Shown here piece after piece: positions 889-54,387 of a stretch of 64,000 nucleotides of DNA. A model generated the notes under the pieces. It did not search any database. It had not been told where the DNA came from and was given only the letters and a program-made list of their open reading frames with translations. The first letter of the stretch is position 1. Each line of letters opens with the position of its first letter. Origin of the DNA: Escherichia phage vB_Eco_Solly; the sequence record OY720021. The stretch is one strand, 5' to 3'. Both the position numbers and the translations under genes were made by a program.

Positions 889-902
889 TCTTTGACGATT
901 TA

Positions 903-932
903 AGGGACCTTCGGGTCCCTTTAGTTGTTTTT
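903..932 (+). terminator. Intrinsic terminator hairpin after gene 23
   Basis: AGGGACC-TTCG-GGTCCCT stem-loop followed by T-rich tract. Confidence 0.7.
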
Positions 933-936
933 ATGG

Positions 937-944
937 TATAAATA
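937..944 (+). promoter_or_regulatory. Late promoter TATAAATA for gene 24
   Basis: Exact TATAAATA 28 nt upstream of gene 24 ATG. Confidence 0.7.
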
Positions 945-971
945 AATCATATAAACTGAAAGGAAAGCGCA

Positions 972-3868: not shown

Positions 3869-5287
3869 TTATGGATAGGTATAGATGATACCAGTTTCTA
3901 AAGCAGTTTTGTGAATGATGTATCCATTACGCGATTCTTGGACATCAACTTCTGGATAGTCTTTCATCATCTTCTGAAGAGTGTAACGATGCAGGTAGTA
4001 TTTACTATCTGGATCTTCAGTTTTCCAATCTTTACCTTCTTCAGTCATTTTTTGGATTTCATCCATAACCCACCAACCGCACCAGATGTAAGCTGAGCTA
4101 CGGTGTGGAAGAGGATGAACATAAGGTAATTCACCTTCTGGTTCTGGAGCAACTTTATCAGTTACCTGAACTTGACCTTCTGCCGTAATAGTTTTGCTAT
4201 CATAATCAGCAGCAGTAACAGTTGCAGTAACTTCAATAGTTTGACTTCCAATAGATGAGGTATCAACTGTATATACATTAGTTGACCCTTCTACAGGAGA
4301 AGAATCTTTCTTCCATGAATACTCAATTTGCGCTTCTTCTGGAGCATCAGTGACATTAGCAGTAAATGTAGCCGAAGCATCTTGCTGAACGTTAATAGAA
4401 GGAGGAGACAATGTAACCTGTGGATTCATTGTCTTCTTATTAACCGTTAATGATACTTCATTCGAAGTAACTTCCTTTTCATTGTAATTTTCAGCAGTTA
4501 CTTGGGCTACGCATTTAATTCTTTTTACTCCACTTGTAGTTGGAGTATAGTTAAATGTAGAGTTAGTTTCTCCACCAACTTGTGAATCATCTACATACCA
4601 CTGATACGTAGCAGATGCTCCATCAGGTTGAGAAGCTAAGGCAGCAGTAAATTGAACTGGGGTTCCGATTACTCCTGCTGGAGGACTATCAGGAGTTACT
4701 GCCAAGGTAGTTGTCTGCTCCTTTTTATTAACAGTCAGTGATACTTCATTAGAAGTAACGCTTAGTGCATCATAATCTGTCGCAGTTACTTGAGCCACAC
4801 ACTTAATTCTTTTTACCCCGCTTTCGGCAGGAGTGTAATTGAACGTAGCGTTAGTTGCTTCGCCCACAGGAGAATCATCTACATACCATTGATAAGTAGC
4901 GTTTGCGCCCGATGGCTGCGAAGCTAAAGCGGCAGTAAATTCAATAGCTGTTCCGATTACTCCAGCGTCAGGGCTATTAGGAGTTACAGCTAAGGTGGTC
5001 GTTTGTGTCTTATTTTGAACTGTGATAGTTGTAGTAGCTTCTGCTGTTTCAGCATCAGTATCTGGGACTGGGTTTGTTGCAACTACTTTAATAGTCTTTT
5101 GACCGGCAGGTCCTTTTAATACATAATTAAAAGTTGCTTCAGCTCCATCTTGTGGAACATCATCTACAGTCCAAGCATATGTAATAGGTCCATCTCCAGT
5201 TTGACCACTGGGTGTAGCAGTAAACTGCTGAGTCTGATCTATAACTCCAGTAGGTGTTTTAGGAGTTATATCAACTGTAAAAGCCAT
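3869..5287 (-). CDS. hoc: Highly immunogenic outer capsid protein Hoc with four Ig-like domains
   Basis: 472 aa; Ig-like repeats rich in T/V/S with YxW and KCVAQVTA motifs; two near-identical 96-aa tandem units; aromatic C-terminal capsid-binding region. Confidence 0.85.
   Translation of the reverse strand: MAFTVDITPKTPTGVIDQTQQFTATPSGQTGDGPITYAWTVDDVPQDGAEATFNYVLKGPAGQKTIKVVATNPVPDTDAETAEATTTITVQNKTQTTTLAVTPNSPDAGVIGTAIEFTAALASQPSGANATYQWYVDDSPVGEATNATFNYTPAESGVKRIKCVAQVTATDYDALSVTSNEVSLTVNKKEQTTTLAVTPDSPPAGVIGTPVQFTAALASQPDGASATYQWYVDDSQVGGETNSTFNYTPTTSGVKRIKCVAQVTAENYNEKEVTSNEVSLTVNKKTMNPQVTLSPPSINVQQDASATFTANVTDAPEEAQIEYSWKKDSSPVEGSTNVYTVDTSSIGSQTIEVTATVTAADYDSKTITAEGQVQVTDKVAPEPEGELPYVHPLPHRSSAYIWCGWWVMDEIQKMTEEGKDWKTEDPDSKYYLHRYTLQKMMKDYPEVDVQESRNGYIIHKTALETGIIYTYP
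4433..5008 (-). repeat. Tandem direct duplication of a 288-bp Ig-domain unit inside hoc
   Basis: Units about 4433..4720 and 4721..5008 align with mostly synonymous or conservative differences. Confidence 0.8.
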
Positions 5288-5977: not shown

Positions 5978-5990
5978 AATATTTCCTCAG

Positions 5991-5998
5991 TATAAATA
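5991..5998 (+). promoter_or_regulatory. Late promoter TATAAATA upstream of uvsW
   Basis: Exact TATAAATA 30 nt upstream of uvsW ATG. Confidence 0.6.
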
Positions 5999-6027
5999 TA
6001 GATATATTTATTACATGGTATTTAGAC

Positions 6028-16415: not shown

Positions 16416-16445
16416 ACTATAACACAACATGAGGGACTTGTAAAC
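16416..16445 (-). promoter_or_regulatory. Early promoter (GTTTAC -35, 18-nt spacer, TATAGT -10)
   Basis: Minus strand GTTTAC ... TATAGT; same cassette repeated at 31760..31789. Confidence 0.6.
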
Positions 16446-18502
16446 TACATTTTGAACTTTTTAGACATTCCGTTGATGTTAACCAAAGAAGCTAAGATTT
16501 GAGAAACTTCGTTTTCCTCTTCTTTTGATTCTTCTACAAGGAATTGATTAAATCCAGTCATTGGACGAACTTCACCAGTTTCCATCAAATGATCGCCATC
16601 ATATACTGATTCCTCTAATTGTTCAGAAGGAGGAACGATTGTACCTTCGATTAGATACTTGTTATAAGCAGTTTCTTTCATAAAGTAAGTACTTACTTTA
16701 TTAATCTTCAGTAAAATTCCACGTGGTAGAATAACTTCAGCTTCTGATGGAAATCCTGATAAATGACCTGGAACGATAACTTTGATTCGCTCAGCTCCTT
16801 TAATTACCATACCCACGCTAGTTTCAGCATCTTCATTAGCATATGTAGAATGACTACCCATATGCATCAAATCTTCTGCATCAATGGAACCTTCTCCTTC
16901 ACCAGAAAATACTGCGCCAGAATCATCTAGAGCCATATAGTTTTTACCATGCTCACCGAAGATATTTGGTTTAAGCGATGTGGATACGAAGTTCTTGAAA
17001 TAGAACATTTTATTTTCAATGTTATGACGCAAAGTTTTAAAGGTAACTTCTTGCCCACGATAAAGAGTAGTTCCTGGAGGAAGAACTGAACCTTTAGCAA
17101 ATGCAGAATCCAACGTCTCGATGTGTTTAATAGCTCGTTCCATATATTCTTCACGGGTAGAATCAGGTTTACCTAAAAGGAACGAGTTCATTTCAACATA
17201 TGAATCTGCACAATAATCTTCAATTACATCAGACTCAGCCTGAGTTAATCCTTTTGGAGTTACTTCAGTGCTTGCGTATTCATATGCCTGAGCGGCAGAT
17301 TCATTAATCAATTTATAAATGCCATTCATGACAAATTGAATAATAGCTGTCTTTTCATCTGGTGTAGCTTTAGAACCTTTAACTAAATCATTGATAATTT
17401 TCTTAATAACATCAAAGCTATTAGAAATATTAATGTCAGCAAGATCGCTTAAAATTTTATCAGTTTTATAATCAAAGAATTCTTTATTCTTTAAATATTC
17501 TTGAGAACCTTGATATGTTATATCGCTCTGCAACTTGATAGATGGATCACGTAAACGTGCATGGGCTAATGCAATATGATTTCGGAAACTTTCTAGTTCA
17601 TAATCGTTAGATTTAAAACGAGAAGCACTTCTCATACCACCGATAGCTCCTTTGCTAAAGTTTGAACCAATCTGAATAACGCCAGAGTTCATCGGACCTT
17701 CTGCTTTATATACCGGAACTTTAGATTCAAACTCTTGATATTTCTTAGCAGCGAAGCTATCACCCTGAAGTGAAGCATCAACAGTAGAATATTGAGCTTG
17801 TGCTGCTAATCGACGACTAATTTTAGTTTTCTGAATAACAGCTTGATCCGTGCGCTTATCATTTTCTAAAGCAATAGAAGCAGCAACAGCGACAGCTTTA
17901 GGAACAGCATTACCTGTTTTAACGTCTACATAAACATCACCAACCTTTGATTCAACTTTTGTGAATAACTCAGTTGAAATAGGAGGTACACCTGGAATGT
18001 CTTCTAAATTGGCATTTTTACGGTAAACCATAATATATGCATATTTCTTATCATAGTCCCAGATTTCCTTTAAAAGAACATATCGACCTGCTCCTTTAGT
18101 ACGTACTAAACGGTCAGCAATAACTTGCATTTGACGAGCTGCGCCATTTGTTTTACTTTTTAGTACGCGGAATAGGCATGCGTCGATTTTATACTGTTTC
18201 ATTGTTTGAAGAGCAGTATCAAAAACAGCATTAATGACGCCAATTGGATTTCCACCCAAGTTTCTAAGCTTGACTAACGATAATTTCTCATTAACACCTA
18301 TCATTACGATATGCATCATTTTGTCGCCTGGCTTAACGTTTTTATTCGTATCACCGCCAGAGGTGTATGTACAAAATCTAAATCCAGGAAGCACGCTTTC
18401 TTCACCGGCTTGAATAGCAAAAATTTGTGGTATTTTATGCTTAGGATTTAAGTTAACAACCGGCGCCGAAGCGCCGTCAAATAATTCTGTAATAAGTTCC
18501 AT
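16445..18502 (-). CDS. alt: Alt-like mono-ADP-ribosyltransferase, paralog A (packaged head protein)
   Basis: 685 aa; N-terminus MELITELFD; C-terminal ART elements YRGQ, FVSTSL, SEAEVILPRG. Confidence 0.85.
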   Translation of the reverse strand: MELITELFDGASAPVVNLNPKHKIPQIFAIQAGEESVLPGFRFCTYTSGGDTNKNVKPGDKMMHIVMIGVNEKLSLVKLRNLGGNPIGVINAVFDTALQTMKQYKIDACLFRVLKSKTNGAARQMQVIADRLVRTKGAGRYVLLKEIWDYDKKYAYIMVYRKNANLEDIPGVPPISTELFTKVESKVGDVYVDVKTGNAVPKAVAVAASIALENDKRTDQAVIQKTKISRRLAAQAQYSTVDASLQGDSFAAKKYQEFESKVPVYKAEGPMNSGVIQIGSNFSKGAIGGMRSASRFKSNDYELESFRNHIALAHARLRDPSIKLQSDITYQGSQEYLKNKEFFDYKTDKILSDLADINISNSFDVIKKIINDLVKGSKATPDEKTAIIQFVMNGIYKLINESAAQAYEYASTEVTPKGLTQAESDVIEDYCADSYVEMNSFLLGKPDSTREEYMERAIKHIETLDSAFAKGSVLPPGTTLYRGQEVTFKTLRHNIENKMFYFKNFVSTSLKPNIFGEHGKNYMALDDSGAVFSGEGEGSIDAEDLMHMGSHSTYANEDAETSVGMVIKGAERIKVIVPGHLSGFPSEAEVILPRGILLKINKVSTYFMKETAYNKYLIEGTIVPPSEQLEESVYDGDHLMETGEVRPMTGFNQFLVEESKEEENEVSQILASLVNINGMSKKFKM

Positions 18503-18505
18503 GAT

Positions 18506-20599
18506 TTATCCTTGAACGAACTTGTAAGGCATGTTTGTAATATCTATGCAAGACGCAATAATTCCAAGAGATGATTCTACTTTCTGTTTAACGTTTGATG
18601 AAACAAATGATGCAAAGTCAACTCTGTCTTCTATTTCAATATCACCTGTCATTGCAACCAATTCACCAGTTTCCATTAAATGGTCTCCGTCATAGATTAC
18701 CGATTCAGTGAGCTCTTCCGTGGTCATAACTTCAGCTTGAATGAGTTTTGTATTATTAGATGTTGTTCCGTCATTATTAGAAGCATCAGTTATTTTATTA
18801 ACTTTGACCATCAATCCACGTGGTAGAATAACTTCAGCTTCTGTTGCTATTCCGAGACTTCCTGGATATACAACATTAACTTTATGAGCTCCATCAATTG
18901 CCCATCCTATTTGAACTTTAACGTATTCAGGATTTTCTTTATACGCTCTTATTTCGTTTGGATTAATAGTTATTCCTTCTTCATTTTTATCAACTGTTAA
19001 TTCGTTGCGAGCTTCTGGTTCTAAAAGACCAATACCAGCGTGTGTAATTCCAAAACGTCCAAAAATGATAGGAGTTAAAGAAGTAGATACAAAATTTCTA
19101 AAATAGAACACTTTATTTTTAACTAACGCTTCATATATAGGAGCAGTCATACTTTGAGCACGATAAACTGTAATGCCTTCTGGTATACGGTCACCATTTT
19201 CAAAAGCTGAATCTAAGTTATTTATAGCAGATTCAATTTCTTTTTCACTCATTACATCATATCGTTCTGGATTGTAACGACCTAAAAGAAGATTATTGAT
19301 GTCAGTATATCCTGAACCGCAATATTCTCTAATGCCACGCTTTTGTGATGGAGTATATTTAGAACCATCGCGGGCAATAGTAATATCAATCATTGGACCA
19401 GCACCAATTCCAGAAAAACTGTAAATCATTCGTTTGAGGAATTTAGTTTTTGCTGCGTTCCAGGAATTTTTAGTTATTTCTTCCCAGACTTCATCTGGTT
19501 GTCCTTTACGATTTTTATTATGATTAGCAAGCCATTTATCTTTATAATCTTCAAAGAATTGATTTACAGCTGCTGCGTATTTCTCTAAACATTTTATTGA
19601 AGTAGTTGGTTCATTTTTAATTGCATTAAAAATTACTTCTTTAATTTTTTCTGAAACTTCACCGACTTGACTCATTGGAAAGAATTTATAATCATAGTGA
19701 AGTTCATCTGCCGTTCCTTCAGCAATAATTTTTGCTGCCTTTGTTTTAGAAGCTAATGAATTAATTCCAATTTTCATTTCTTCTGCTTCGGGAATTAAAG
19801 GTGCAGTAGCTGGTTTATTAAAATTAGCTGCTGTAGATTCATACTTCTGGAATAATTCACTTTCAAATCTAGAAGATTCCAATGACTGACTTTGTGCAAT
19901 TGCTCTACGGGAAATTTTAACTTTAACGATTACGGCTTGGTCAGAACGTTTATCATTTTCTTGTGCAATTGATGCTGCAATTGCCTCATTTTTAGTTACT
20001 TGGGCTCCAGTATCTTTATTGATATAAACATCACCGACTTTCGATTCAACTTTAGTAAAGAGCTCGGTACTAATTTCCGGAACTCCTGGAATGTCTTCTA
20101 GTGATACATTTTTGCGATGTATAAGAATATATGCATACTTTTTATCGTAATCCCAGAGTTCCTTAAGAAGGACGTATCTACCACCTGAACGACTACGGAT
20201 AAGTCTATCAGCAATAACTTGAATTTGTCGAGCTTGACCGGCGGTTTTAGACTTAAGAATACGAAGCATACAAGCATCAATTTTATATTGACGCATTGTT
20301 TGCATTGCAACAGTAAAAACTGAATTGATATAATTAATTGGGCTTGGACCAAGACCTTTTAATTTAGCAATTGAACCTTTAGCAGTTAATGTAAAAGGAA
20401 CAATATGCATCATTTTATCGCCCATCTTTAAATCGCGATTAGTATCACCTCCAGATGTATAGGTACATAAACGAAAGCCTGGTTGTTCAATTGCATCATC
20501 AACATGAACTGAAAAAATTTGTGGTATTTTCTTCTTTGGATTTAAGTTTGTAATCGGAAGAGTAGTATCTTCGTCAAATAATTCTGTAATGAGTTCCAT
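18506..20599 (-). CDS. Alt-like mono-ADP-ribosyltransferase, paralog B
   Basis: About 697 aa from second ATG; N-terminal 200 aa near-identical to paralog A; C-terminal VYRAQ, FVSTSL, TEAEVILPRG; late promoter 20623..20630. Confidence 0.85.
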   Translation of the reverse strand: MELITELFDEDTTLPITNLNPKKKIPQIFSVHVDDAIEQPGFRLCTYTSGGDTNRDLKMGDKMMHIVPFTLTAKGSIAKLKGLGPSPINYINSVFTVAMQTMRQYKIDACMLRILKSKTAGQARQIQVIADRLIRSRSGGRYVLLKELWDYDKKYAYILIHRKNVSLEDIPGVPEISTELFTKVESKVGDVYINKDTGAQVTKNEAIAASIAQENDKRSDQAVIVKVKISRRAIAQSQSLESSRFESELFQKYESTAANFNKPATAPLIPEAEEMKIGINSLASKTKAAKIIAEGTADELHYDYKFFPMSQVGEVSEKIKEVIFNAIKNEPTTSIKCLEKYAAAVNQFFEDYKDKWLANHNKNRKGQPDEVWEEITKNSWNAAKTKFLKRMIYSFSGIGAGPMIDITIARDGSKYTPSQKRGIREYCGSGYTDINNLLLGRYNPERYDVMSEKEIESAINNLDSAFENGDRIPEGITVYRAQSMTAPIYEALVKNKVFYFRNFVSTSLTPIIFGRFGITHAGIGLLEPEARNELTVDKNEEGITINPNEIRAYKENPEYVKVQIGWAIDGAHKVNVVYPGSLGIATEAEVILPRGLMVKVNKITDASNNDGTTSNNTKLIQAEVMTTEELTESVIYDGDHLMETGELVAMTGDIEIEDRVDFASFVSSNVKQKVESSLGIIASCIDITNMPYKFVQG

Positions 20600-20622
20600 C
20601 ATATCCTCTCTAGTGTTTATTC

Positions 20623-25345: not shown

Positions 25346-25455
25346 TTTATTCTCCTTTGTTTGTGTAAGATAATACTATCACAAAGGAACTATACTGTAA
25401 ACAACTTTATGCAATCTTTGGAAAATAAAAAAGGACTCCCGAAGGAGTCCTCAAC

Positions 25456-25632
25456 TTATGCTTTCTGCTTACCAAAACGAGAAGCATCATCTCGAAGAAC
25501 CGCACGTGCTCGACGCATGATCTTCTCAACAGTTTGATTGATACGAGAGTTCGACACACGCTTGTAGCCAGCGCGTTTAGAATCACCAACTTTCTTTTCA
25601 ACTGCTTTCTTTGCTTTAACTTGTTTTGCCAT
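25456..25632 (-). CDS. Small highly basic Lys/Arg-rich protein (58 aa), possible nucleic-acid binder
   Basis: MAKQVKAKKAVEKK...; start taken at ATG 25632 rather than the track start at 25674. Confidence 0.45.
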   Translation of the reverse strand: MAKQVKAKKAVEKKVGDSKRAGYKRVSNSRINQTVEKIMRRARAVLRDDASRFGKQKA

Positions 25633-31792: not shown

Positions 31793-33380
<1,588 letters not shown>

Positions 33381-33407
33381 AATAAAATGGGCCTTACGGC
33401 CCACTCC

Positions 33408-34586
33408 TTAAAAGTATTTTTTAAAACTCATCATAACTTTATCATCAACATCATTATCAATCTGTGCAACAAGATAAGATGACAGTTCTACTTCTTGTGG
33501 CGCGGATTGAACATTATCAGAATTAAGATATTCACGAATCCAAGGATATGGATGTTTAACCGGAGCATCGGTAATTGGGTATGGAAGACCACACTGTTTC
33601 ATACGAGATACAGTTAAGTAATCAATAAAGCTCCACATGCTATTTGTATTTAATCCAGGAACATCGCCATCTTTAAATAAATGAACTGCCCAATCTTTTT
33701 CTTGGCGGTTAACTTCCATGAAAATATCAACTGCTTCTTGTTCACACTCTTGAGCAATTTTAACCCATTCATCGCCGTCAGTGCCAAGTTGAAGTTGACG
33801 AATAATATATTGGGTGCCTTTAAGATGAAGCTGCTCATCACGTGCAATGAACTTCATAATCTTGGCATTACCTTCCATGATTTCCATGTTCTTATGGAAG
33901 TTAAAGGTACATGCGAAAGATACATAAAAACGAATAGCTTCCAATGCGTTGATTACATGCAAGCAGAGGTAAAGACATTTCATTAAAGCACGTTTAGCTT
34001 CGACTTCTTGTTTAATAGCTCGGTTTAAACGAAAGTCGGCATCGGGAGATTCTTTAGCTAGTTCTACAAATTCTTTAGCATTTTCCCATTCACGGGTTTT
34101 AGTCAGAACATCATCATAATAGCGTCCAATAGATTCGGCTCGTTTCATGATTGCTTCATCTAATACAATCTCATCAAATACCTTCGATGGATCAGTATAA
34201 AGATTTCGCATGATATGTGTATATGAACGACTGTGAATAGTTTCACTAAAAGTCCATGTAGCAACCCATGTATCAAGACTTGGGTCTGAAATTAACGACA
34301 TAAGTACAGCAGACGGTGCACGACCCTGAATGCTATCTAGAAGTGATTGATACTTCAGGTTATTAGTAAAAATATCTTGCTGATATTGAGGAAGCTTGTT
34401 AAATTGCGCAGCATCCATCATTAAGTTTACTTCTTCAGGACGCCAGAAAAATGACAACTGCTTTTCGGTTAAATCTTCAAAAACTTTATGACGTTGAATA
34501 TCATAACGCGCAATACCAAGACCTGAACCAAAAAACATAGGTTCTTTTAAAACATCAACTGGATTTGTATTAAAAACTGTGCTCAT
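33408..34586 (-). CDS. nrdB: Ribonucleotide reductase small subunit, uninterrupted
   Basis: 392 aa continuous ORF; no intron. Confidence 0.9.
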   Translation of the reverse strand: MSTVFNTNPVDVLKEPMFFGSGLGIARYDIQRHKVFEDLTEKQLSFFWRPEEVNLMMDAAQFNKLPQYQQDIFTNNLKYQSLLDSIQGRAPSAVLMSLISDPSLDTWVATWTFSETIHSRSYTHIMRNLYTDPSKVFDEIVLDEAIMKRAESIGRYYDDVLTKTREWENAKEFVELAKESPDADFRLNRAIKQEVEAKRALMKCLYLCLHVINALEAIRFYVSFACTFNFHKNMEIMEGNAKIMKFIARDEQLHLKGTQYIIRQLQLGTDGDEWVKIAQECEQEAVDIFMEVNRQEKDWAVHLFKDGDVPGLNTNSMWSFIDYLTVSRMKQCGLPYPITDAPVKHPYPWIREYLNSDNVQSAPQEVELSSYLVAQIDNDVDDKVMMSFKKYF

Positions 34587-34637
34587 AAATTTTCCACTTA
34601 GTTAATAGATAGTGACTCGTCCATGAGTCAAATTATA

Positions 34638-36902
34638 TCATAATTTACAGGATGAACAATCTTCAGCTTTTGGAGTTTCTATTTCATAATCATCAGTACC
34701 AGAACCATCGCGGGTATTATGATAATAGAAATTTTTTCCGCCAAAATACCAAAAATACAAAAGGTCATCAATCATTATTGACATTGGAACCTTTCCTTTT
34801 GGAAAAATCTGTGGGTCATAATATGTATTCGCCGAAGCTGATTGACAAACCCATTTCAGCATAATAGCTACCTGCGTAAGATAAGGTTTATTACCTTTCT
34901 TAGCTAATTTCCATGTATAATCATAGAGGTCTATGTTATGCTCAATATTGGGCACGACTTGATTAAAGGAGCCCTCTTTTGATTCTTTAACAGAGACTGG
35001 TCCACGTGGAGGCTCGATACCGTTTGTACTGTTAGAAACTTGGGAAGATGACTCACATGGCATAAGTGCTGATAATGTGCTATTACGGATGCCAAAGAGC
35101 TTAAGGTCTTCCCGCAGCGACGACCAGTCACAAACGTATTTTGGAGCTGCGATTTGGTCAATCTTTTTATTGTACCAGTCGATAGGTAATTCGCCTCGAG
35201 ACCAACGAGTGTCTGAATAATATTCGCAAGGTCCTTTTTCTTTGGCGAGCTTAATGGATGCTTTAATGAGTCCATACTGTAATCTCTCAAATAGTTCATG
35301 TGTTAAATCGTTAGCATCTTCATAAGAAGCAAAGTTACTTGCCAGCCAAGCTGCATAGTTAGTAACACCTACACCAAGGTTTCGACGCTTTTTAGCTTTT
35401 TCTGCTTCAGGAACTGGATATCCTTGGTAATCCAAAAGATTATCAAGAGCACGAACTTGAACTTCTGCCAATTCATTAATTTTATCTTGGTCTTGCCAAT
35501 CGAAGTTATCCAGCACAAATGCAGATAACGTGCACAATCCAATTTCAGCATCGGGGCTATTCACATCATTTGTTGGAATAGCAATTTCACAGCACAAGTT
35601 ACTCTGACGAATAGGTGCCTTTTCACGAATAAACGGAGTATAGTTATTCGTATTATCAATGAACTGTACATAAATCCTTGCTGTTCCTGAACGTTCAGTC
35701 ATGAGCAATTCAAATAGTTCACGGGCTTTAATACGCTTTTTACGAATATTAGGGTCTTTTTCTGCGGCTTCGTATAATTCACGGAAACGGTCTTGGTCTT
35801 TAAAATAAGAATAATAAAGCTCGCCACCCATTTCATGCGGACTGAACAAAGTAATGTAATCGTTCTTTCCGAATCGTTCCATCATCAAATCATTCAGCTG
35901 AACACCATAATCCATATGACGAATGCGGTTTTCTTCTACGCCTTTGTTATTTTTCAAAACGAGAAGATTTTCAACTTCCAAATGCCAAATAGGATAATAA
36001 GCAGTAGCAGCGCCGCCACGAATTCCACCCTGTGAACATGATTTAACTGCAGTCTGAAAATGTTTCCAAAAAGGAATAACACCAGTATGACGTACTTCAC
36101 CCATGCCAATCTTAGAACCTTCAGCACGAATCATACCAACATTAATACCAATTCCAGCGCGTTTAGAGATATATTCAACAATTGAAGCGGAAGCCTTATT
36201 GATAGACTTCAATGAATCACCTGCCTCAATAACAACACATGAACTAAACTGTCGAGTTGGAGTACGGCAACCAGCCATAATAGGAGTCGGCAATGAAATC
36301 TGTCGAGTAGATACTGCTTCATAAAAACGAATAACATGTTTTAATCTATCAACAGGTTCATCTTGATGCAGTGCCATTCCAATAGTCATAAATGCAAACT
36401 GCGGAGTTTCATAAATTTGACCAGTGGTTTTATCTTTAACTAGATATTTTTCTTTTAATTGCATCGCCCCGGAATAAGTAAATTCCATATCCCGTTCGTG
36501 CTTAATTTTTGATTCTAAAAATGTAATTTCTTCTGCTGAATATTTTGACAATAATTCAGGGTCATATTTACCTGCATTTACACAGTAAGAAATATGGTCA
36601 ATAAATGAACGCGGTTCATACTGCCCATAAACATGCTTACGAAGAGCAAACATTAAACAGCGTGCAGCTACATATTGATAATCAGGTTCTTCAACCGAAA
36701 TAGAATTCGCAGCAGCCTTAATGACAATAGTCTGAATATCATCAGTTGTCATTCCATCACGGAGATAAGATTTAATATTTTCATATAATTCATAAGGATC
36801 TACTGATGTTCCCTCAGCTGCCCAAGATAAAACTTTAATAATTTTTTGTGGGTCAAAGCTCTGAGAAACACCACTACTTTTGATAACATTAATTAATTGC
36901 AT
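34638..36902 (-). CDS. nrdA: Ribonucleotide reductase large subunit
   Basis: 754 aa; only 51 bp separates it from nrdB. Confidence 0.9.
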   Translation of the reverse strand: MQLINVIKSSGVSQSFDPQKIIKVLSWAAEGTSVDPYELYENIKSYLRDGMTTDDIQTIVIKAAANSISVEEPDYQYVAARCLMFALRKHVYGQYEPRSFIDHISYCVNAGKYDPELLSKYSAEEITFLESKIKHERDMEFTYSGAMQLKEKYLVKDKTTGQIYETPQFAFMTIGMALHQDEPVDRLKHVIRFYEAVSTRQISLPTPIMAGCRTPTRQFSSCVVIEAGDSLKSINKASASIVEYISKRAGIGINVGMIRAEGSKIGMGEVRHTGVIPFWKHFQTAVKSCSQGGIRGGAATAYYPIWHLEVENLLVLKNNKGVEENRIRHMDYGVQLNDLMMERFGKNDYITLFSPHEMGGELYYSYFKDQDRFRELYEAAEKDPNIRKKRIKARELFELLMTERSGTARIYVQFIDNTNNYTPFIREKAPIRQSNLCCEIAIPTNDVNSPDAEIGLCTLSAFVLDNFDWQDQDKINELAEVQVRALDNLLDYQGYPVPEAEKAKKRRNLGVGVTNYAAWLASNFASYEDANDLTHELFERLQYGLIKASIKLAKEKGPCEYYSDTRWSRGELPIDWYNKKIDQIAAPKYVCDWSSLREDLKLFGIRNSTLSALMPCESSSQVSNSTNGIEPPRGPVSVKESKEGSFNQVVPNIEHNIDLYDYTWKLAKKGNKPYLTQVAIMLKWVCQSASANTYYDPQIFPKGKVPMSIMIDDLLYFWYFGGKNFYYHNTRDGSGTDDYEIETPKAEDCSSCKL

Positions 36903-37219
36903 AAGTCCTCAACTTGAAAATCGTCTTTAAACAATCGGTTAACTATATGAGCTATTATATCACCATGACACGGCTTTGGTTTACATGTGCATCCTAGCCT
37001 CATTCCACGTAAAGGCTCTAAATGTGCTTTAGTTATTTCTCCGGATTTAATTCGACGTATAAAATCTTTTTTGAATAATTCAATGGCAGCCTCCCGGCTG
37101 CCAGCATCTTTACCGACGTAATTTCCCCAAAATGTACCACGGTGAATATTAACATCAAAGTCGGATTTATATTTATTCACTACCCGGCATAGACGGCCCG
37201 CGCGGTGATAATTCGTCAT
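36893..37219 (-). CDS. Hypothetical Cys/His-motif protein (nrdA.1-like)
   Basis: 108 aa; [12 protein letters not shown] motif. Confidence 0.5.
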
Positions 37220-37436
37220 ATTGTTTTTCCGTTAATACAGTAATATCATAGTAACAATCGGAAGAAGTTTTAACTGTGGAAATTTTATTATCAAAATACT
37301 CACGAGTCATTTTATGAGTATAGTATTTTTTACCATAAATGGTAATAGGCTGTTCTGGTCCTGGAACTTCTAACTCGCTTGGGTTAGGAAGTGTAAAAAG
37401 AACAACGCCAGAAGTATCTTTAAATCGTAAAATCAT
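37173..37436 (-). CDS. Hypothetical protein (nrdA.2-like)
   Basis: 87 aa; stop overlaps td start. Confidence 0.5.
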
Positions 37437-38293
37437 ATTGCCATTTTCCCTTTAATTGCCGGATGCGATTCATAATTTTCAAGGATAAAATCTTTCGGTT
37501 TCATGTATTCAGTTAACCAGTAAAGCTGTGTTTCGGTGTCACAATTTCCAAACTCTATAGGCCAATCAATTTTAAGTTCACACAGTTCTTTAGGCTCACG
37601 ACGTAAAATTTCTTTACATTGTTCTACGTGATTCATATAGATATGAGTATTACCACCAGAAAATATCAAATCTCCTGGGATAAGATTACACATCTTAGCC
37701 ATAATATGCGTCAAGGCAGCGTACGAGGCAATGTTGAATGGCAAGCCCAAGAAAACATCTACACTTCTTTGGTACCACTGTAAATCAAGATAACCATTAC
37801 GCACATTAAACTGATAGAACATATGACAGGGTGGTAATGCCATTTGATTGATTTCAGCTGGATTCCATGCTGAAACGATTTGACGTCGATCAGTTGGTAA
37901 TTTTTTAATACGATCAATAGTTTCAACTAATTGATCCACACCACCGAAATCACGCCATTGTTTACCATATATAGGACCCAGTTCACCACTATGATATCCT
38001 AGGTCTTTAGCTTGGTTTTCATAATTGTCATCCCAGATAGTTTTACCTTGAATAAGACTACCGTGAGTAAGAAGACGTAAATCATTAACATTGGTAGAAC
38101 CGGAAATAAACCATAAAAGCTCAGCAATGCATGCATTCCAGGCGAGCTTCTTAGTTGTTACTGCAGGAAAACCTTTACTTAAATCCCAGCGTAATTTAGT
38201 ACCGAACAAAGCAATTGTTCCTGTGCCCGTTCGGTCATCGGTTTCATAGCCATTTTCAAAAATGTCTTTAATTAAATCTTGGTATTGTTTCAT
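37433..38293 (-). CDS. td: Thymidylate synthase, uninterrupted
   Basis: 286 aa continuous ORF; active-site [12 protein letters not shown]; no group I intron. Confidence 0.95.
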
Positions 38294-38338
38294 TTAGTAC
38301 CTTATATAAATTATAATACATTTTATGAAGCTAAATAA

Positions 38339-38686
38339 TCAATACGGTTTAGCATCAAATTTTCTCTCAATTTCAGGCGTGAAATATAATTCTTTACCGC
38401 GTTTGGAAAAGCGACCAATAATATGATAATTATTCTCATCAAACGTGATATTACCAATATCCATAGCTTTCAACCAAATATCGATATTTCTATCCAACTT
38501 TATGTCAAAATTCCAATACGGAGAACTATTACCGAAAATACTGCAAGCGGATTCAGTAAAACAACTACTATAAATCTTATCTTTAGGAACTACTAATTGA
38601 TAGACACCTTTAATAAACTGAGGACCCTGCCATTTTGGTTGTTTCGTGTCTTTTTCTAATAGAATAGGGTAATAATTAAAATTCAT
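38339..38686 (-). CDS. Hypothetical protein inserted between frd and td
   Basis: 115 aa ORF, 19 bp downstream of frd stop and 45 bp upstream of td start; weak SD. Confidence 0.55.
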   Translation of the reverse strand: MNFNYYPILLEKDTKQPKWQGPQFIKGVYQLVVPKDKIYSSCFTESACSIFGNSSPYWNFDIKLDRNIDIWLKAMDIGNITFDENNYHIIGRFSKRGKELYFTPEIERKFDAKPY

Positions 38687-38705
38687 ATTTCCGCCACGCG
38701 TTATT

Positions 38706-39532
<827 letters not shown>

Positions 39533-39542
39533 ATTATTTTCC

Positions 39543-39785
39543 TTAAACAGACTTTTTCACATTTTTCCAATCAGCTTTAAACTGCTCGACGTCAGAATGG
39601 TAAATCCAAAATCCTGCGCTTTCTCCATCCTCATAAAGAGGGCATCCATCACATTCATCTTCCCATCCCATATCACGTAAAAGTTGTTCAGCTTTTTCAA
39701 CAAGTTCAGAATCTTTACCGATGATATTAAAATACCATTTACCTTTAACTTCTGAATCTTTGATGCTCTGGCGTTGTAATCTCAT
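39543..39785 (-). CDS. Hypothetical protein (frd.2-like)
   Basis: 80 aa; early promoter at 39790..39840. Confidence 0.5.
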   Translation of the reverse strand: MRLQRQSIKDSEVKGKWYFNIIGKDSELVEKAEQLLRDMGWEDECDGCPLYEDGESAGFWIYHSDVEQFKADWKNVKKSV

Positions 39786-41531: not shown

Positions 41532-41630
41532 TTTTATTTCCTTTTTAATTTAATTAACAGTTGGTGCTATGACGATGTATGACCTCATAGCTGGTCAGTG
41601 AGATAATTATAATCTATTTATAATAAGCAA
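41532..41630 (-). promoter_or_regulatory. Gene 32 leader: A/U-rich translational operator with upstream structured element
   Basis: Minus strand ends UUAAAUUAAAAAGGAAAUAAAAAUG, preceded by self-complementary segment and TATAAATA. Confidence 0.6.
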
Positions 41631-49623: not shown

Positions 49624-52600
49624 ATGGCTACTTTAAAACAAATACAATTTAAAAGAAGCAAAACCGCAGGTGCACGTCCTGCTGCTTCAGTATTAGCCGA
49701 AGGCGAATTGGCTATAAACTTAAAAGATAGAACAATTTTTACTAAAGATGATTCAGGAAATATCATTGATTTAAGCATTTCCGCTGGCGGTAATATCAGT
49801 GGAAATATCACACAAACTGGAGATTATTTACAGAACGGTACATACAATCTCAATGGAAATCAGTTTGTTTATGCAGGAAAATATATTGAATTTTTACCTA
49901 AAACAGCTGGTAATGGTGCGTGGGCAAATCAACACCTAAATAAAGCTCCTATCTTTACAGATTTAAGTTCAACTACTTCTATTTCAGAATATCATCCACT
50001 CATTAAGCAACGCTATAAAGATGGAACTTTTTCAGCGGGTACATTGGTTGCTGAAGGAAGTTTTAAGATTCATTACATCAATGAATCTGGGGATTCGAAA
50101 TATTGGACTTTTAATCGTAATGGTAATTTCCAAGTTGACACAGGCGATTTATTTGTCAGCAAAGGTAATATTTCCGCTTCAGGCAATATTAATTCAGCTA
50201 CTGGAATAGTTTCTGCTCCACAGATTAATACAAAAACCATAGTTTTTGATACAAAGGCATTCGGACAATACGATTCGCAGTCATTAGTTCAATATGTTTA
50301 TCCTGGAACAGGTGAAGAAAATGGTATAAACTATCTTCGTAAAGTTCGAGCTAAATCAGGCGGAACTATTTATCATGAAATCGCTTCAGCTCAAACTGGT
50401 AAGAATGATGAAATTTCTTGGTGGACCGGAAATACACTTACTACTAAATTAATGGGTCTTCGTAATGATGGAGCAATGGTATTACGTCGTTCACTTGCTA
50501 TTGGCACAATTACTGCTGACGAAAATACTAACAACTATGGTTCTCCTACTCCAATGGGAGAAAGATATATTGCTTTGGGCGATGCCGCCACTGGTTTAAA
50601 ATACGTCAAGCAGGGTGTTTATGATTTAGTAGGTAATTGGAATTCTGTTGCTTCTATCACTCCTGACAGTTTCCGTAGTACTCGTAAAGGTATATTTGGT
50701 CGTTCCGAGGACCAAGGCGCAACTTGGATAATGCCTGGTACAAATGCTGCTCTCTTGTCTGTTCAAACCCAAGCTGATAATAACAATGCTGGAGACGGAC
50801 AAACCCATATCGGGTACAATGCTGGCGGTAAAATGAACCACTATTTCCGTGGTACAGGTCAGATGAATATCAATACCCAACAAGGTATGGAAATTAACCC
50901 GGGTATTTTAAAATTGGTAACTGGCTCTAATAAAGTACAGTTTTATGCTGACGGCGGTATTACATCTGTTAAGCAGCTTTCAATATATAATGGCGTATAT
51001 TTAGCAGCTAATAATTCTACTGCTGGGCTAACATTCGCTCCAACTACTACAGTTGATGGCACTAAGCAAATTTTGTGGGAAGGTGGTACTCGTGCTGGGC
51101 AGAATAAAAGCTACGTAACTGTTAAAGCATGGGGTAATTCATTTAACGCATCCGGCGATCGTACTCGTGAAACTGTATTTGAAGTTAGTGACGGGCAAGG
51201 ATATTATTTTTATTCACAGCGTTTGGCTCCAAGTGGCTCTGAAACTACTGGGCCTGTTGTAACCCAGTTCAATGGACAAGTTAATGCTAGAGGGAGCATT
51301 ATCACCGATGGAAGTCTTAGAGTTAATGGATTAAGTACATTATCCGGACAAGTTACTATGGATAACGGGCTTGTTTTATCCGGCGGTGGTTCTATTACCG
51401 GTCAAGTTAAAATTGGTAATACCGTAGATGCTTTCCGTATTTACAATGCTGAATATGGAGCTATTTTCCGTCGTTCTGAAGCGTCTTTGCATATTATACC
51501 TACACTTAAAGATGCAGGTGAAAGTGGCGGTATTTCTAACCTTCGCCCATTGAGCATCTCACTTAACAATGGTATGGTTCAAATGCGCCATTCTGTTACG
51601 TTAGGTGATGATGGTGCAGGCGGTAATATGGTGACGGTTGATAATGATTCTAAAGTTATGGTAATGACGACTAATAGCCGTATTAGTCCTAACTTCCGTA
51701 TGCAAATTGGACAGTCGTCTTATATTGATGTGGAATGTACTGATGCTGTGAGACCTGCTGGAGCCGGTTCTTTTGCTTCACAAAATAATGAAAATGTACG
51801 TGCGCCGTTCTATATGAATATTGATAGAACTGATACTAGTACATATGTTCCTATTGTGAAACAAAGATACGTTCAAAATAATAGTTGCTATTCTATTGGT
51901 ACTTTAATTAATGGTGGTAACTTTAGAGTTCATTATCACGAAGGTGGTGACGGCGTTTCTACTGGCGCAATTATAAAGGATTTAGGTTGGGAATTTAATA
52001 AAAACGGTGATTTTTATTCTCCTGGTAAATTAGGCGCTGGTAATGTTCGTATTGGTACGGATGGTAATATCACTGGCGGTTCATTACCTAACTTTGCTAA
52101 CTTGAACTTGACATTAGACCGTAAAGTCAATACCCGAATGGTTTCTTATTCAGGTACTGGCGGTTGGTATAAATTAGCCACTGTAACAATGCCACAATCC
52201 ACTTCAACCGTCACATTCGAAATTGCTGGTGGTAATGGATATAATATCAACATCCCACACCAATGCGTTACTTCGAAAATCGTTTTAAGAACTTCGAACA
52301 ATAACCCGAAAGGTATTAACGCTGTTGTTTGGTCGATGGATACCGATCAGGGTATTAAGAATGTTGCAACGGTTAATACATCAGGCGATGTTTATGACAT
52401 CTATGTAAACGTTGGTACTTATGCTCAGGCGTTAGCAGTTTCTTATTATGCTACTCCTAATGCTACCATTAATCAGATATTTGCAACGGACCAACCGGGT
52501 GCAACAGAAACTGCGGTTGAACTTCCTGAGACGGCTATTCAAGGACAGGTTGCTAGTGTTCTGAACAACTTGGCTCCTACCCCTAACGGTGTGAAGCGTT

Positions 52601-53571
52601 ATGAAGCCGATTCTGAAATAGCTATTAATAGCCAAACCGGTATTCGTATCAGAAGCAATGCCGATAAAACTGGTTCTGTGGCTACAATGTTACGAAATGA
52701 CGGCGGTAGTTTTTATATTCTGTTTACAGATAAAAATGACACCGATGGCGCAGCAACTGTTAATGGTGATTGGAATAGTAAACGTCCTTTCGCAATTAAC
52801 TTAACAACCGGCGAAGTGATGATGAATAATGGCATAGCTGTTCGCAGCGCTGCTTTATTCTATAATAGCATAAACGTCAAAGATAATGGTTCTATTAACT
52901 TTGATAAATCAGGTGCTAACCCGAGAAATATGAGAATATTTCATGCTGGCGATGCTTCTCGCGGTAACCGTATTGAAATTGCCGATGAAACTAACTATAT
53001 TGCTTACTTTGAAAAGACTCCAGGTGGAGCTAACCGCTTTGTAGTAAATAATGCTACTGTAGCTGGTGTTAACCAAATGAATTCATTTGGTATTAATATC
53101 AATAACGCACTTGGTGGAAATAGTATAGCATTTGGTGATAATGATACCGGAATTAAACAATCCGCTGACGGAGTTCTTGATATCATTACTAATGCCGCAC
53201 GCCGAATGAGATTCCGAACGGGTGACACTTATTCTGACATGAATATAAATGCCCCAAACGTTTATATTCGTTCTGATATTCGTTTGAAATCTAATTTCAG
53301 ACCTATTGAAAATGCTCTTGAAAAGGTTGAACAGCTTGATGGTTTAATCTATGATAAAGCTGACTATATAGGCGGTGAAATTGTTCAAACTGAAGCGGGT
53401 ATTGTGGCTCAAACACTGCAAGATGTTTTACCAGAAGCAGTTCGTGAAGTTGAAGATATTAAGGGTAATAAAATACTCACTGTTTCTTCTCAATCCCAGA
53501 TTGCTCTTCTGGTTGAAGCTGTGAAAACACTTTCTTCTCGTGTAAAAGAACTTGAATCTAAACTTATGTAA
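49624..53571 (+). CDS. 37: Long tail fibre distal subunit gp37 with C-terminal intramolecular-chaperone-like domain
   Basis: 1315 aa; shares motifs with gp34; C-terminal ~99 aa begin SDIRLK and end in a heptad-like coiled-coil segment. Confidence 0.85.
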
Positions 53572-53601: not shown

Positions 53602-54387
53602 ATGGCAATTGTAGGTGTTCCTGGCTGGATTGGCGAATCTGCCGTGAATGAAACTGGACAACGTTGGATGGATGCTGCGATGAGAGCAGTTCGTGTTTCA
53701 GTTCCCGGTTGGATGAGTTCAATGGCTGGGCAATCTAAAGAAGTATATTATAGCATTGGTGCTAGTAATTCTTATAATAAAGATACATTAATAAACTGGA
53801 TAAAAGCACAAGGGTCCACGCCTGTTGTTATTACTATTACAGGAAATATTGTTTCTCAATCTACTGGTGTTCCATGCTTAGATTTTCCTAGCTCATTAAC
53901 TAATGCATACGTGACACTTAATATCAATTCAGGCGTGCACGTTTGGGGCCGTGGCGGGAATGGCGGAAATAACTCTGCCGGTGGAGCAGGAGGAACTGCA
54001 ATAAATAATGGAATTGGAACTAGATTGCGTATTAACAACAATGGTGTTATCGCAGGAGGCGGTGGAGGCGGTGGAGGCGGATATTATTCTCCTTTTTCAC
54101 AAATGAGATTAACCTTTGGCGGCGGTGGTGGGCGTCCGTTTGGTGCTGCCGGTGGGTCTGCTAATATGGAACAGGGTGCTACTGCTGGTACTATTTCTGC
54201 ACCAGGTAAAGGGTCTGTCAACGGTATCTATAATGGCGGGAATGGTGGTGATGCCGGAGCCGCAGGAGGTAAATGTAATATTCGCGGTCAAGGATCAGAA
54301 TATAACGGCGGTGCGGCCGGTAAAGCTGTTACTGGTAATGCTCCAACTTGGACTAAGGTTGGTACAATATACGGTTCAAGAGTATAA
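53602..54387 (+). CDS. 38: Receptor-recognising adhesin gp38, T2-type with glycine-rich motifs
   Basis: 261 aa; N-terminal attachment region then poly-Gly blocks separated by variable segments. Confidence 0.85.
   Translation: MAIVGVPGWIGESAVNETGQRWMDAAMRAVRVSVPGWMSSMAGQSKEVYYSIGASNSYNKDTLINWIKAQGSTPVVITITGNIVSQSTGVPCLDFPSSLTNAYVTLNINSGVHVWGRGGNGGNNSAGGAGGTAINNGIGTRLRINNNGVIAGGGGGGGGGYYSPFSQMRLTFGGGGGRPFGAAGGSANMEQGATAGTISAPGKGSVNGIYNGGNGGDAGAAGGKCNIRGQGSEYNGGAAGKAVTGNAPTWTKVGTIYGSRV

Follow-up and report, generated by a model that had tools for sequence, protein, structure and literature searches.

What does it mean when a T4-like phage carries its genes for nucleotide metabolism without introns or homing endonuclease genes: is the phage unusual, did it lose such elements, and would it take them up from a phage that has them? 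The question is raised by Escherichia phage vB_Eco_Solly, from which a stretch of 64,000 nucleotides (sequence record OY720021; referred to here as the window) was analyzed. The window is a segment of a Tequatrovirus (T4-like) genome that runs from the 3' part of gene 23 through rIIB; its closest database matches are 97–97.6% identical and there is no identical record. Its nucleotide-precursor gene cluster, in the order frd–td.1–td–nrdA.2–nrdA.1–nrdA–nrdB–denA, is very probably an ordinary, empty cluster of the T2 type found in Tequatrovirus, one in which the hot spots for mobile elements are unoccupied. The layout is already known, as it is the arrangement of phage T2.

All of the cluster genes lie on the minus strand. 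Dihydrofolate reductase (frd, 193 aa, 38706–39287) is recognized by Pfam DHFR_1 and by the annotation of relatives. It is followed by td.1, an open reading frame (ORF) of 115 aa between frd and td (38339–38686) that has no counterpart in T4, and by thymidylate synthase (td, 286 aa, 37433–38293), which matches the full length of the Pfam model Thymidylat_synt (1–266 of 266, E 1.8e-96). Two small genes known from the T4 annotation come next, nrdA.2 (DUF5496, 87 aa, 37173–37436; Pfam E 7.5e-61) and nrdA.1 (DUF4326, 108 aa, 36893–37219; Pfam E 5.5e-22). The large subunit of ribonucleotide reductase (nrdA, 754 aa, 34638–36902) shows the Pfam domains ATP-cone, Ribonuc_red_lgN, and Ribonuc_red_lgC, the last over positions 1–523 of 523, and has the same length as the annotated nrdA of T4. 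The small subunit (nrdB, 392 aa, 33408–34586) matches Ribonuc_red_sm (E 7.9e-37), and denA, for endonuclease II (32970–33404), matches the Pfam GIY-YIG domain and encodes a protein 100% identical to T4 DenA. The initial annotation had described td and nrdB as single continuous ORFs; the ORF list and the full-length Pfam matches agree, and the same holds for nrdA. The Td protein aligns end to end with the spliced T4 Td and is colinear with it residue for residue, at 286 aa each. Since all of the genes in the cluster are uninterrupted, their expression needs no RNA splicing.

The closest parallel in layout is T2 itself. In T2H (GenBank AY262132.2), frd, td.1, td, nrdA.2, nrdA.1, nrdA, and nrdB are annotated in the same order as in the window, and the lengths of td (861 nt), nrdB (1179 nt), and the spacer between nrdA and nrdB (51 nt) are equal to those found here. 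The two sequences form a single alignment of 5424 columns with 93.1% nucleotide identity, and T2H Td.1 is identical to the 115-aa protein of the window at 114 of 115 residues. T4 (NC_000866) shares the core genes and their order, but it also carries a 1017-nt td intron with the gene for I-TevI, mobE together with nrdB.1, and a 598-nt nrdB intron with a defective I-TevIII gene, none of which is found in the window. Since T4 lacks td.1, an ORF that the initial annotation had not mentioned, the cluster in the window is not simply that of T4 minus its mobile elements.

The absence of introns was addressed with a structure-aware covariance search using the Rfam model RF00028 (Intron_gpI). Run in E-value mode, it returned no match up to E=10 in 32500–39600, the region of the cluster, and none across the whole window at a limit of E=0.05. 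The same mode detected both T4 introns used as positive controls, the td intron at 40.3 bits (E 9e-8) and the nrdB intron at 35.7 bits (E 2e-6). These scores fall below the Rfam gathering cutoff of 50 bits, so the negative result rests on the E-value mode. A search of the whole window at the gathering score was also empty and was dropped as evidence, because the control locus in T4 (133000–148000) gave no match under that setting either. The T4 introns are presumably missed at the gathering score because their endonuclease ORFs interrupt the Rfam model. This carries a more general caution, namely that a default Rfam result of no hit cannot exclude ORF-bearing group I introns in phages. With the empty E-value search, a Td protein colinear with spliced T4 Td, and an nrdB of the same length as in T2H, the absence of introns from td and nrdB is settled.

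Homing endonucleases were sought by comparing ten proteins with the 64 kb by tblastn. Nine of the queries were endonucleases (I-TevI from T4 and from Pu-Krd-SF3, I-TevIII in its defective and its full-length form, MobE, SegD, SegE, SegG, and an endonuclease from UFV-AREG1), and the tenth was the mobE-linked NrdB.1. Nothing was found below E=0.3 with the ten proteins; the threshold was E=0.4 for the GIY-YIG group (the two I-TevI proteins, SegD, SegE, and SegG) and E=0.3 for the HNH group (MobE, I-TevIII, and the UFV-AREG1 nrdA insert). As an internal control for tblastn, DenA was recovered at 100% identity. DenA is the sole GIY-YIG protein of the window, and although it has this fold, it is an enzyme of host-DNA degradation and not a homing endonuclease. 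The description of the cluster as free of introns and homing endonucleases is thus borne out by searches whose controls were positive.

The places occupied by mobile elements in T4 can each be located in the window. In a multiple alignment, the T4-only block of 1017 nt that makes up the td intron maps to 37745|37744, within the equivalent of the I-TevI target (-27 to +11; 37734–37771, minus strand). The 598-nt block of the nrdB intron maps to 33911|33910 (minus strand), between nt 676 and 677 of nrdB, and a block of about 635–645 nt with mobE and nrdB.1 maps inside the 51-bp gap between nrdA and nrdB (34587–34637, minus strand), which is 100% identical to that of T2H. The sites of the free-standing genes farther out are empty as well: 83 bp separate genes 23 and 24 (889–971, plus strand), where about 60 bp stand in place of some 789 bp that hold segD in T4; 50 bp separate inh and uvsW (5978–6027, plus strand), the place of segE; and 99 bp separate genes 32 and 59 (41532–41630, minus strand), the place of segG. 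These three gaps are too short for a gene. Three of the gap lengths (83, 50, and 51 bp) had been given before and came out the same on remeasurement, and the five T4 occupants named at that time, segD, segE, mobE, I-TevI, and I-TevIII, sit where the T4 annotation has them, with I-TevI in the td intron and a defective I-TevIII in the nrdB intron. The sixth T4 element in this interval, segG, had not been named in the initial annotation. Also empty is a site in nrdA near 35517–35535, at which UFV-AREG1 has its nrdA split by a 1127-nt insert with an HNH-type endonuclease ORF of 236 aa.

The short spacer between nrdA and nrdB has some features of its own. A TATAAT sequence lies at the nrdA stop codon, and just after it comes a hairpin with a 6-bp stem (TGACTC-ATGGAC-GAGTCA; 34613–34630, minus strand) that is 100% conserved with T2H. 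The hairpin looks terminator-like in a simple scan, but such matches do not exceed chance here; the promoter/terminator scan gave 25 where 23.5 were expected and 2 where 3.9 were expected.

How common this empty state is can be judged from the relatives. Among 29 relatives with at least 90% identity, taken as an evenly spaced sample of the match ranking, the span is free of inserts in 13, and the other 16 carry insertions of 0.6–4 kb. Many phages are colinear with the window; RB18, JK1, vB_Eco_EL, and slur07, for example, have an insert-free td–nrd cluster with td.1 and are 96.6–97.6% identical to the window over the region; they differ from it by point differences only, apart from another haplotype of a variable nrdB block in RB18. 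By tblastn, about 161 records contain I-TevI and only 21 a MobE of the T4 type, both at 90% identity or more, and 118 contain I-TevIII in complete or truncated form; the comparison set is some 590 Tequatrovirus-like records with a match to the region at 80% or more. The insert-free state is real but ordinary, with a frequency similar to that of its alternatives. T4, with its load of 15 homing endonucleases, is the known exception; it is the outlier here, and the window is not. The discovery value of the cluster is correspondingly small and its interest low, while the phage could serve as a recipient for homing and marker-exclusion crosses.

The sequence around the empty sites bears on whether they were ever filled. 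Identity to T4 changes exactly at both empty intron sites (window 33910/33913 and 37741/37746). The stretch made up of nrdB exon II and denA is 97.4% identical to T4 and nrdB exon I is 84.1% identical; from nrdA through td exon II the value is 94.1%, and in td exon I it is 84.6%. These switches would fit introns that carried exon I sequence along with them. A separate feature of nrdB exon I is a hypervariable block at 33984–34071 (minus strand), about 70–160 nt upstream of the intron site, with about 63% identity to T4. It is the source of the four-codon difference in nrdB length (392 aa compared with 388 aa) and exists in at least three haplotypes among the relatives; the haplotype of the window is shared with Pu-Krd-SF3, phiD1, BGP, and G8, and those of RB18 and UFV-AREG1 differ.

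A history in which an ancestor had the introns, mobE, or both and later had them precisely removed, so that the cluster was cured and not simply never invaded, is quite improbable. Degeneration and loss do belong to the homing-endonuclease life cycle (PMC2988022), and relatives show degenerate states of the kind that such a history would predict, among them the truncated I-TevIII of T4 and G8, the ORF-less 320-nt td intron of U115, and an intronless nrdB in U115 that has flanks of the intron type. The flanks in the window are of the other kind. All of the intron-bearing td alleles examined read T|C across the insertion site (-1|+1) and the window reads C|T, which argues against a recent precise loss of the intron. 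In the same way, the nrdB flank of the window reads TTCGCAT and that of all intron-bearing alleles TTTGCGT, and the gap between nrdA and nrdB, identical to that of T2H, holds no remnant of mobE.

The one gene of the cluster that T4 lacks was considered as a possible mobile element in its own right. The interval between frd and td exists in three states among phages, with the 115-aa ORF, with a 68-aa ORF, or with none, and a polymorphism of presence and absence between two conserved genes is what might be expected if td.1 were a free-standing homing endonuclease of an undescribed kind that lacks the known motifs. There is precedent for such an enzyme in Hef, a motif-less endonuclease encoded in the same region (PMC2988022). 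The product of td.1 belongs to phrog_1928, a family with no assigned function that consists of phage proteins of 100–120 aa, and an exhaustive search gave 17 homologs; searches against Pfam and PADLOC gave no match. Its predicted structure is confident, with a predicted local distance difference test (pLDDT) score of 91, but the conserved residues (Q16, W19, G27, G91, K95, and G97) form no nuclease-like acidic or histidine motif, and a homing endonuclease with two domains would be expected to be longer than 115 aa. Nothing points to td.1 as a homing endonuclease, and the idea is highly improbable.

A different question is whether the empty sites could be recognized by the endonucleases of other phages. 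The initial annotation expected the target sites in td and nrdB to be intact. Alignment with the T4 exon junctions largely supports this at the sequence level for nrdB, where the intron site is nearly identical; it does not for td, where the I-TevI site is changed at 10 of 38 positions but retains C-27 and G-23, the two critical bases.

In nrdB there are two targets to consider. Nicks that depend on MobE were mapped in T2 nrdB at nt 122–126; codon 42, within a polymorphic block at nt 114–131, is AAG in all phages that lack mobE, and this block is followed by a conserved one that encodes FFWRPEE (PMC2790892). By comparison with T2H, the equivalent positions in the window are 34461–34465 (minus strand; GAA as codon 41, AAG as codon 42), directly before the FFWRPEE block, and the surrounding nick region (nt 100–160) shows 0 differences from T2H in 61 positions. 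The nrdB of the window fits the sequence pattern of a MobE target and is a predicted one. The second target is the intron site, which between -40 and +30 differs from T4 at 2 of 70 positions (-5 and -2; TTCGCAT|GTACC in the window compared with TTTGCGT|GTACC in T4) and from T2H at 1 of 70. I-TevIII cuts at -14/-16 (PMC1865063), predicted to correspond to 33924/33926 in the window, and the sequence around these positions is identical.

The td site calls for closer attention. I-TevI recognizes a 38-bp site that extends from -27 to +11 (PMC2988022), with a cleavage motif 5'-CNNNG-3' in which C-27 and G-23 are reported to be critical (PMC2988022, PMC5009752). In the window the site differs from that of T4 at -24, -22, -21, -20, -19, -1, +1, +3, +6, and +9, and all 10 differences are synonymous. 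The cleavage motif at -27 to -23 (window 37771–37767) reads CAAAG where T4 has CAACG; the two critical bases are retained at the right distance from the insertion site. The codons at the cut site change from CAA-CGC-TCA in T4 to CAA-AGA-AGT, which switches the codon family for both Arg and Ser. Within the primary binding region of about 20 bp, which is centered on the insertion site, 15 of 20 positions are as in T4, the differences being those at -1, +1, +3, +6, and +9. The td gene of T2H is a different allele, with a site of the CAACG type and 20 of 70 differences from the window around the insertion site, and the T2 precedent therefore transfers less cleanly to td than to nrdB.

These changes raise the alternative that the td allele of the window is partly or fully refractory to I-TevI, with synonymous recoding protecting a site that would then be empty through resistance and not through lack of exposure. 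That 10 of 38 target positions have changed, every one of them silently and with a double switch of codon family beside the cut, would fit this explanation, as would published work in which many CNNNG substrates were poor or were not cleaved and in which one change at motif position 4, from CAACG to CAAGG, gave a MegaTev survival of 1.6% (PMC5009752). No published cleavage data for a CAAAG motif were found in a literature search. I-TevI is described, on the other hand, as generally tolerant of changes in its site (PMC2988022), and C-27 and G-23 are kept. The distribution of alleles points both ways. Among 12 phages compared, there is a perfect split between CAACG in all intron-bearing alleles and CAAAG in all intronless alleles of the window type. 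In a sample of the phage collection in the database, no intronless td allele comes closer than 90% to a 70-mer of the spliced T4 sequence. However, co-conversion of the sequence between the cut site and the insertion site yields the same dichotomy, and the 70-mer search cannot separate resistance from co-conversion, so that no conclusion was drawn from it. Intronless alleles with CAACG also exist, in sb3, RB27, SH-1, and T2H, so the motif alone does not decide occupancy. In addition, the intron sits in exon II sequence of the window type in Pu-Krd-SF3 and G8, whose intron-bearing alleles retain the window-type bases at +6 and +9. Resistance of the td site is, on balance, unlikely.

A related idea holds that this allele, with CAA-AGA-AGT at the cut, C at -1, and synonymous changes at four of the first nine positions of exon II, has been selected and is poorly cut by I-TevI. 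This is rather unlikely; if it were true, the half of Tequatrovirus phages with an empty site would persist by resistance at the level of the site and not by lack of exposure, and the allele would illustrate, in natural populations, how a target site escapes during the life cycle of homing endonucleases. The td allele offers a natural candidate target for I-TevI, with multiple substitutions and a CAAAG motif.

To return to the reading of an ordinary and unoccupied T2-type cluster, it is plausible that the phage would act as a recipient for homing, given the precedent of T2 and a set of natural mosaics that support this without proving it. T2 has been an experimental recipient of mobE, I-TevIII, and I-TevI in crosses of T2 with T4, where the ratio of inheritance to input was about 2 (PMC2790892). 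In mixed infection with a phage that carries these elements, the cluster would be expected to respond in the manner of T2. A nick made by MobE close to nt 122–126 of nrdB would be repaired on the donor template, which would bring in mobE and, in many cases, the nrdB intron as well. The nrdB intron site at 33911|33910 would be cut 14/16 bp upstream by an I-TevIII that is intact, like that of RB3 or Pu-Krd-SF3. For td, I-TevI is predicted to bind across the insertion site at 37745|37744 and to cleave at the CAAAG motif, 23/25 nt upstream of that site, probably less efficiently than it cuts a site of the T4 type.

The mosaics were scored across ten relatives at the positions that differ between the window and T4. 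Pu-Krd-SF3 and vB_EcoM_G8 have a backbone of the window type, with td.1, the distal part of td exon I, td exon II from +4 on, and the variable nrdB block all matching, but they carry both a td intron with I-TevI and an nrdB intron, of which the window has neither. Their td is of the window type outside a T4-like tract that extends from 37994 to 37742 in Pu-Krd-SF3 (about 250 nt of exon I) and from 37789 to 37742 in G8 (about 45 nt). In both, the tract spans the cut and insertion sites and extends into exon I only. This pattern matches the exon-I-biased co-conversion that has been described for I-TevI (PMC2988022). In nrdB, the intron of Pu-Krd-SF3, phiD1, BGP, and G8 adjoins a variable block of the window type (34071–33984), and the T4-like tracts extend from 33976 to an end between 33825 and 33774. 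Three of these phages, Pu-Krd-SF3, phiD1, and BGP, carry 1090–1091 nt at the nrdB intron site, compared with the 598 nt of T4. The alignments give Pu-Krd-SF3 and G8 the appearance of window-type alleles into which introns came together with short T4-like tracts, and the comparison offers clean natural cases of short, exon-I-biased tracts beside the td intron.

Several points weigh against so direct a reading. The mosaics of Pu-Krd-SF3 and G8 could stem from ordinary recombination and not from homing initiated by an endonuclease, and since the two phages share the exon II junction, they may represent one event and not two independent ones. The td target is 10 of 38 positions away from the only characterized I-TevI substrate. 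The split between intron-bearing CAACG alleles and intronless CAAAG alleles would be expected from co-conversion and equally from resistance. Recipient behavior itself is deduced from sequence comparison.

The relatives also show how varied the occupants of this region can be. In U115, td has its 320-nt intron at the same insertion site and a hybrid flank at the cut site (CAACGCAGT), and an endonuclease ORF of 243 aa lies between nrdA and nrdB. The same interval holds an ORF of 530 aa annotated as a homing endonuclease in vB_EcoM_G8 and a hypothetical ORF of 247 aa in vB_Eco_BGP.

Elsewhere in the window, a few features stand apart from the cluster. The Hoc protein (3869–5287, minus strand) has 472 aa compared with 376 aa in T4, and a stretch of about 300 nt in the T4 gene aligns to the window two times, suggesting that an internal duplication added one Ig-like domain. 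Two Alt-like ADP-ribosyltransferase ORFs stand in tandem at 16445–18502 (685 aa) and 18506–20602 (698 aa), both on the minus strand, and close relatives of the window are also annotated with two. A weak Rfam match to the Rhizobiales small RNA Atu_C8 at 25417–25500 (minus strand; 31.4 bits, E 0.024, gathering score 50) is probably due to chance. The region with the lowest-coverage database matches of the window is that of genes 37 and 38, where the ORF in the gene 37 position (49624–53571, plus strand) encodes 1315 aa and that in the gene 38 position (53602–54387, plus strand) 261 aa. T4 gp37 has 1026 aa, and the sizes in the window look more like those of a distal tail fiber and adhesin of the T2/T6 type than of the T4 type.

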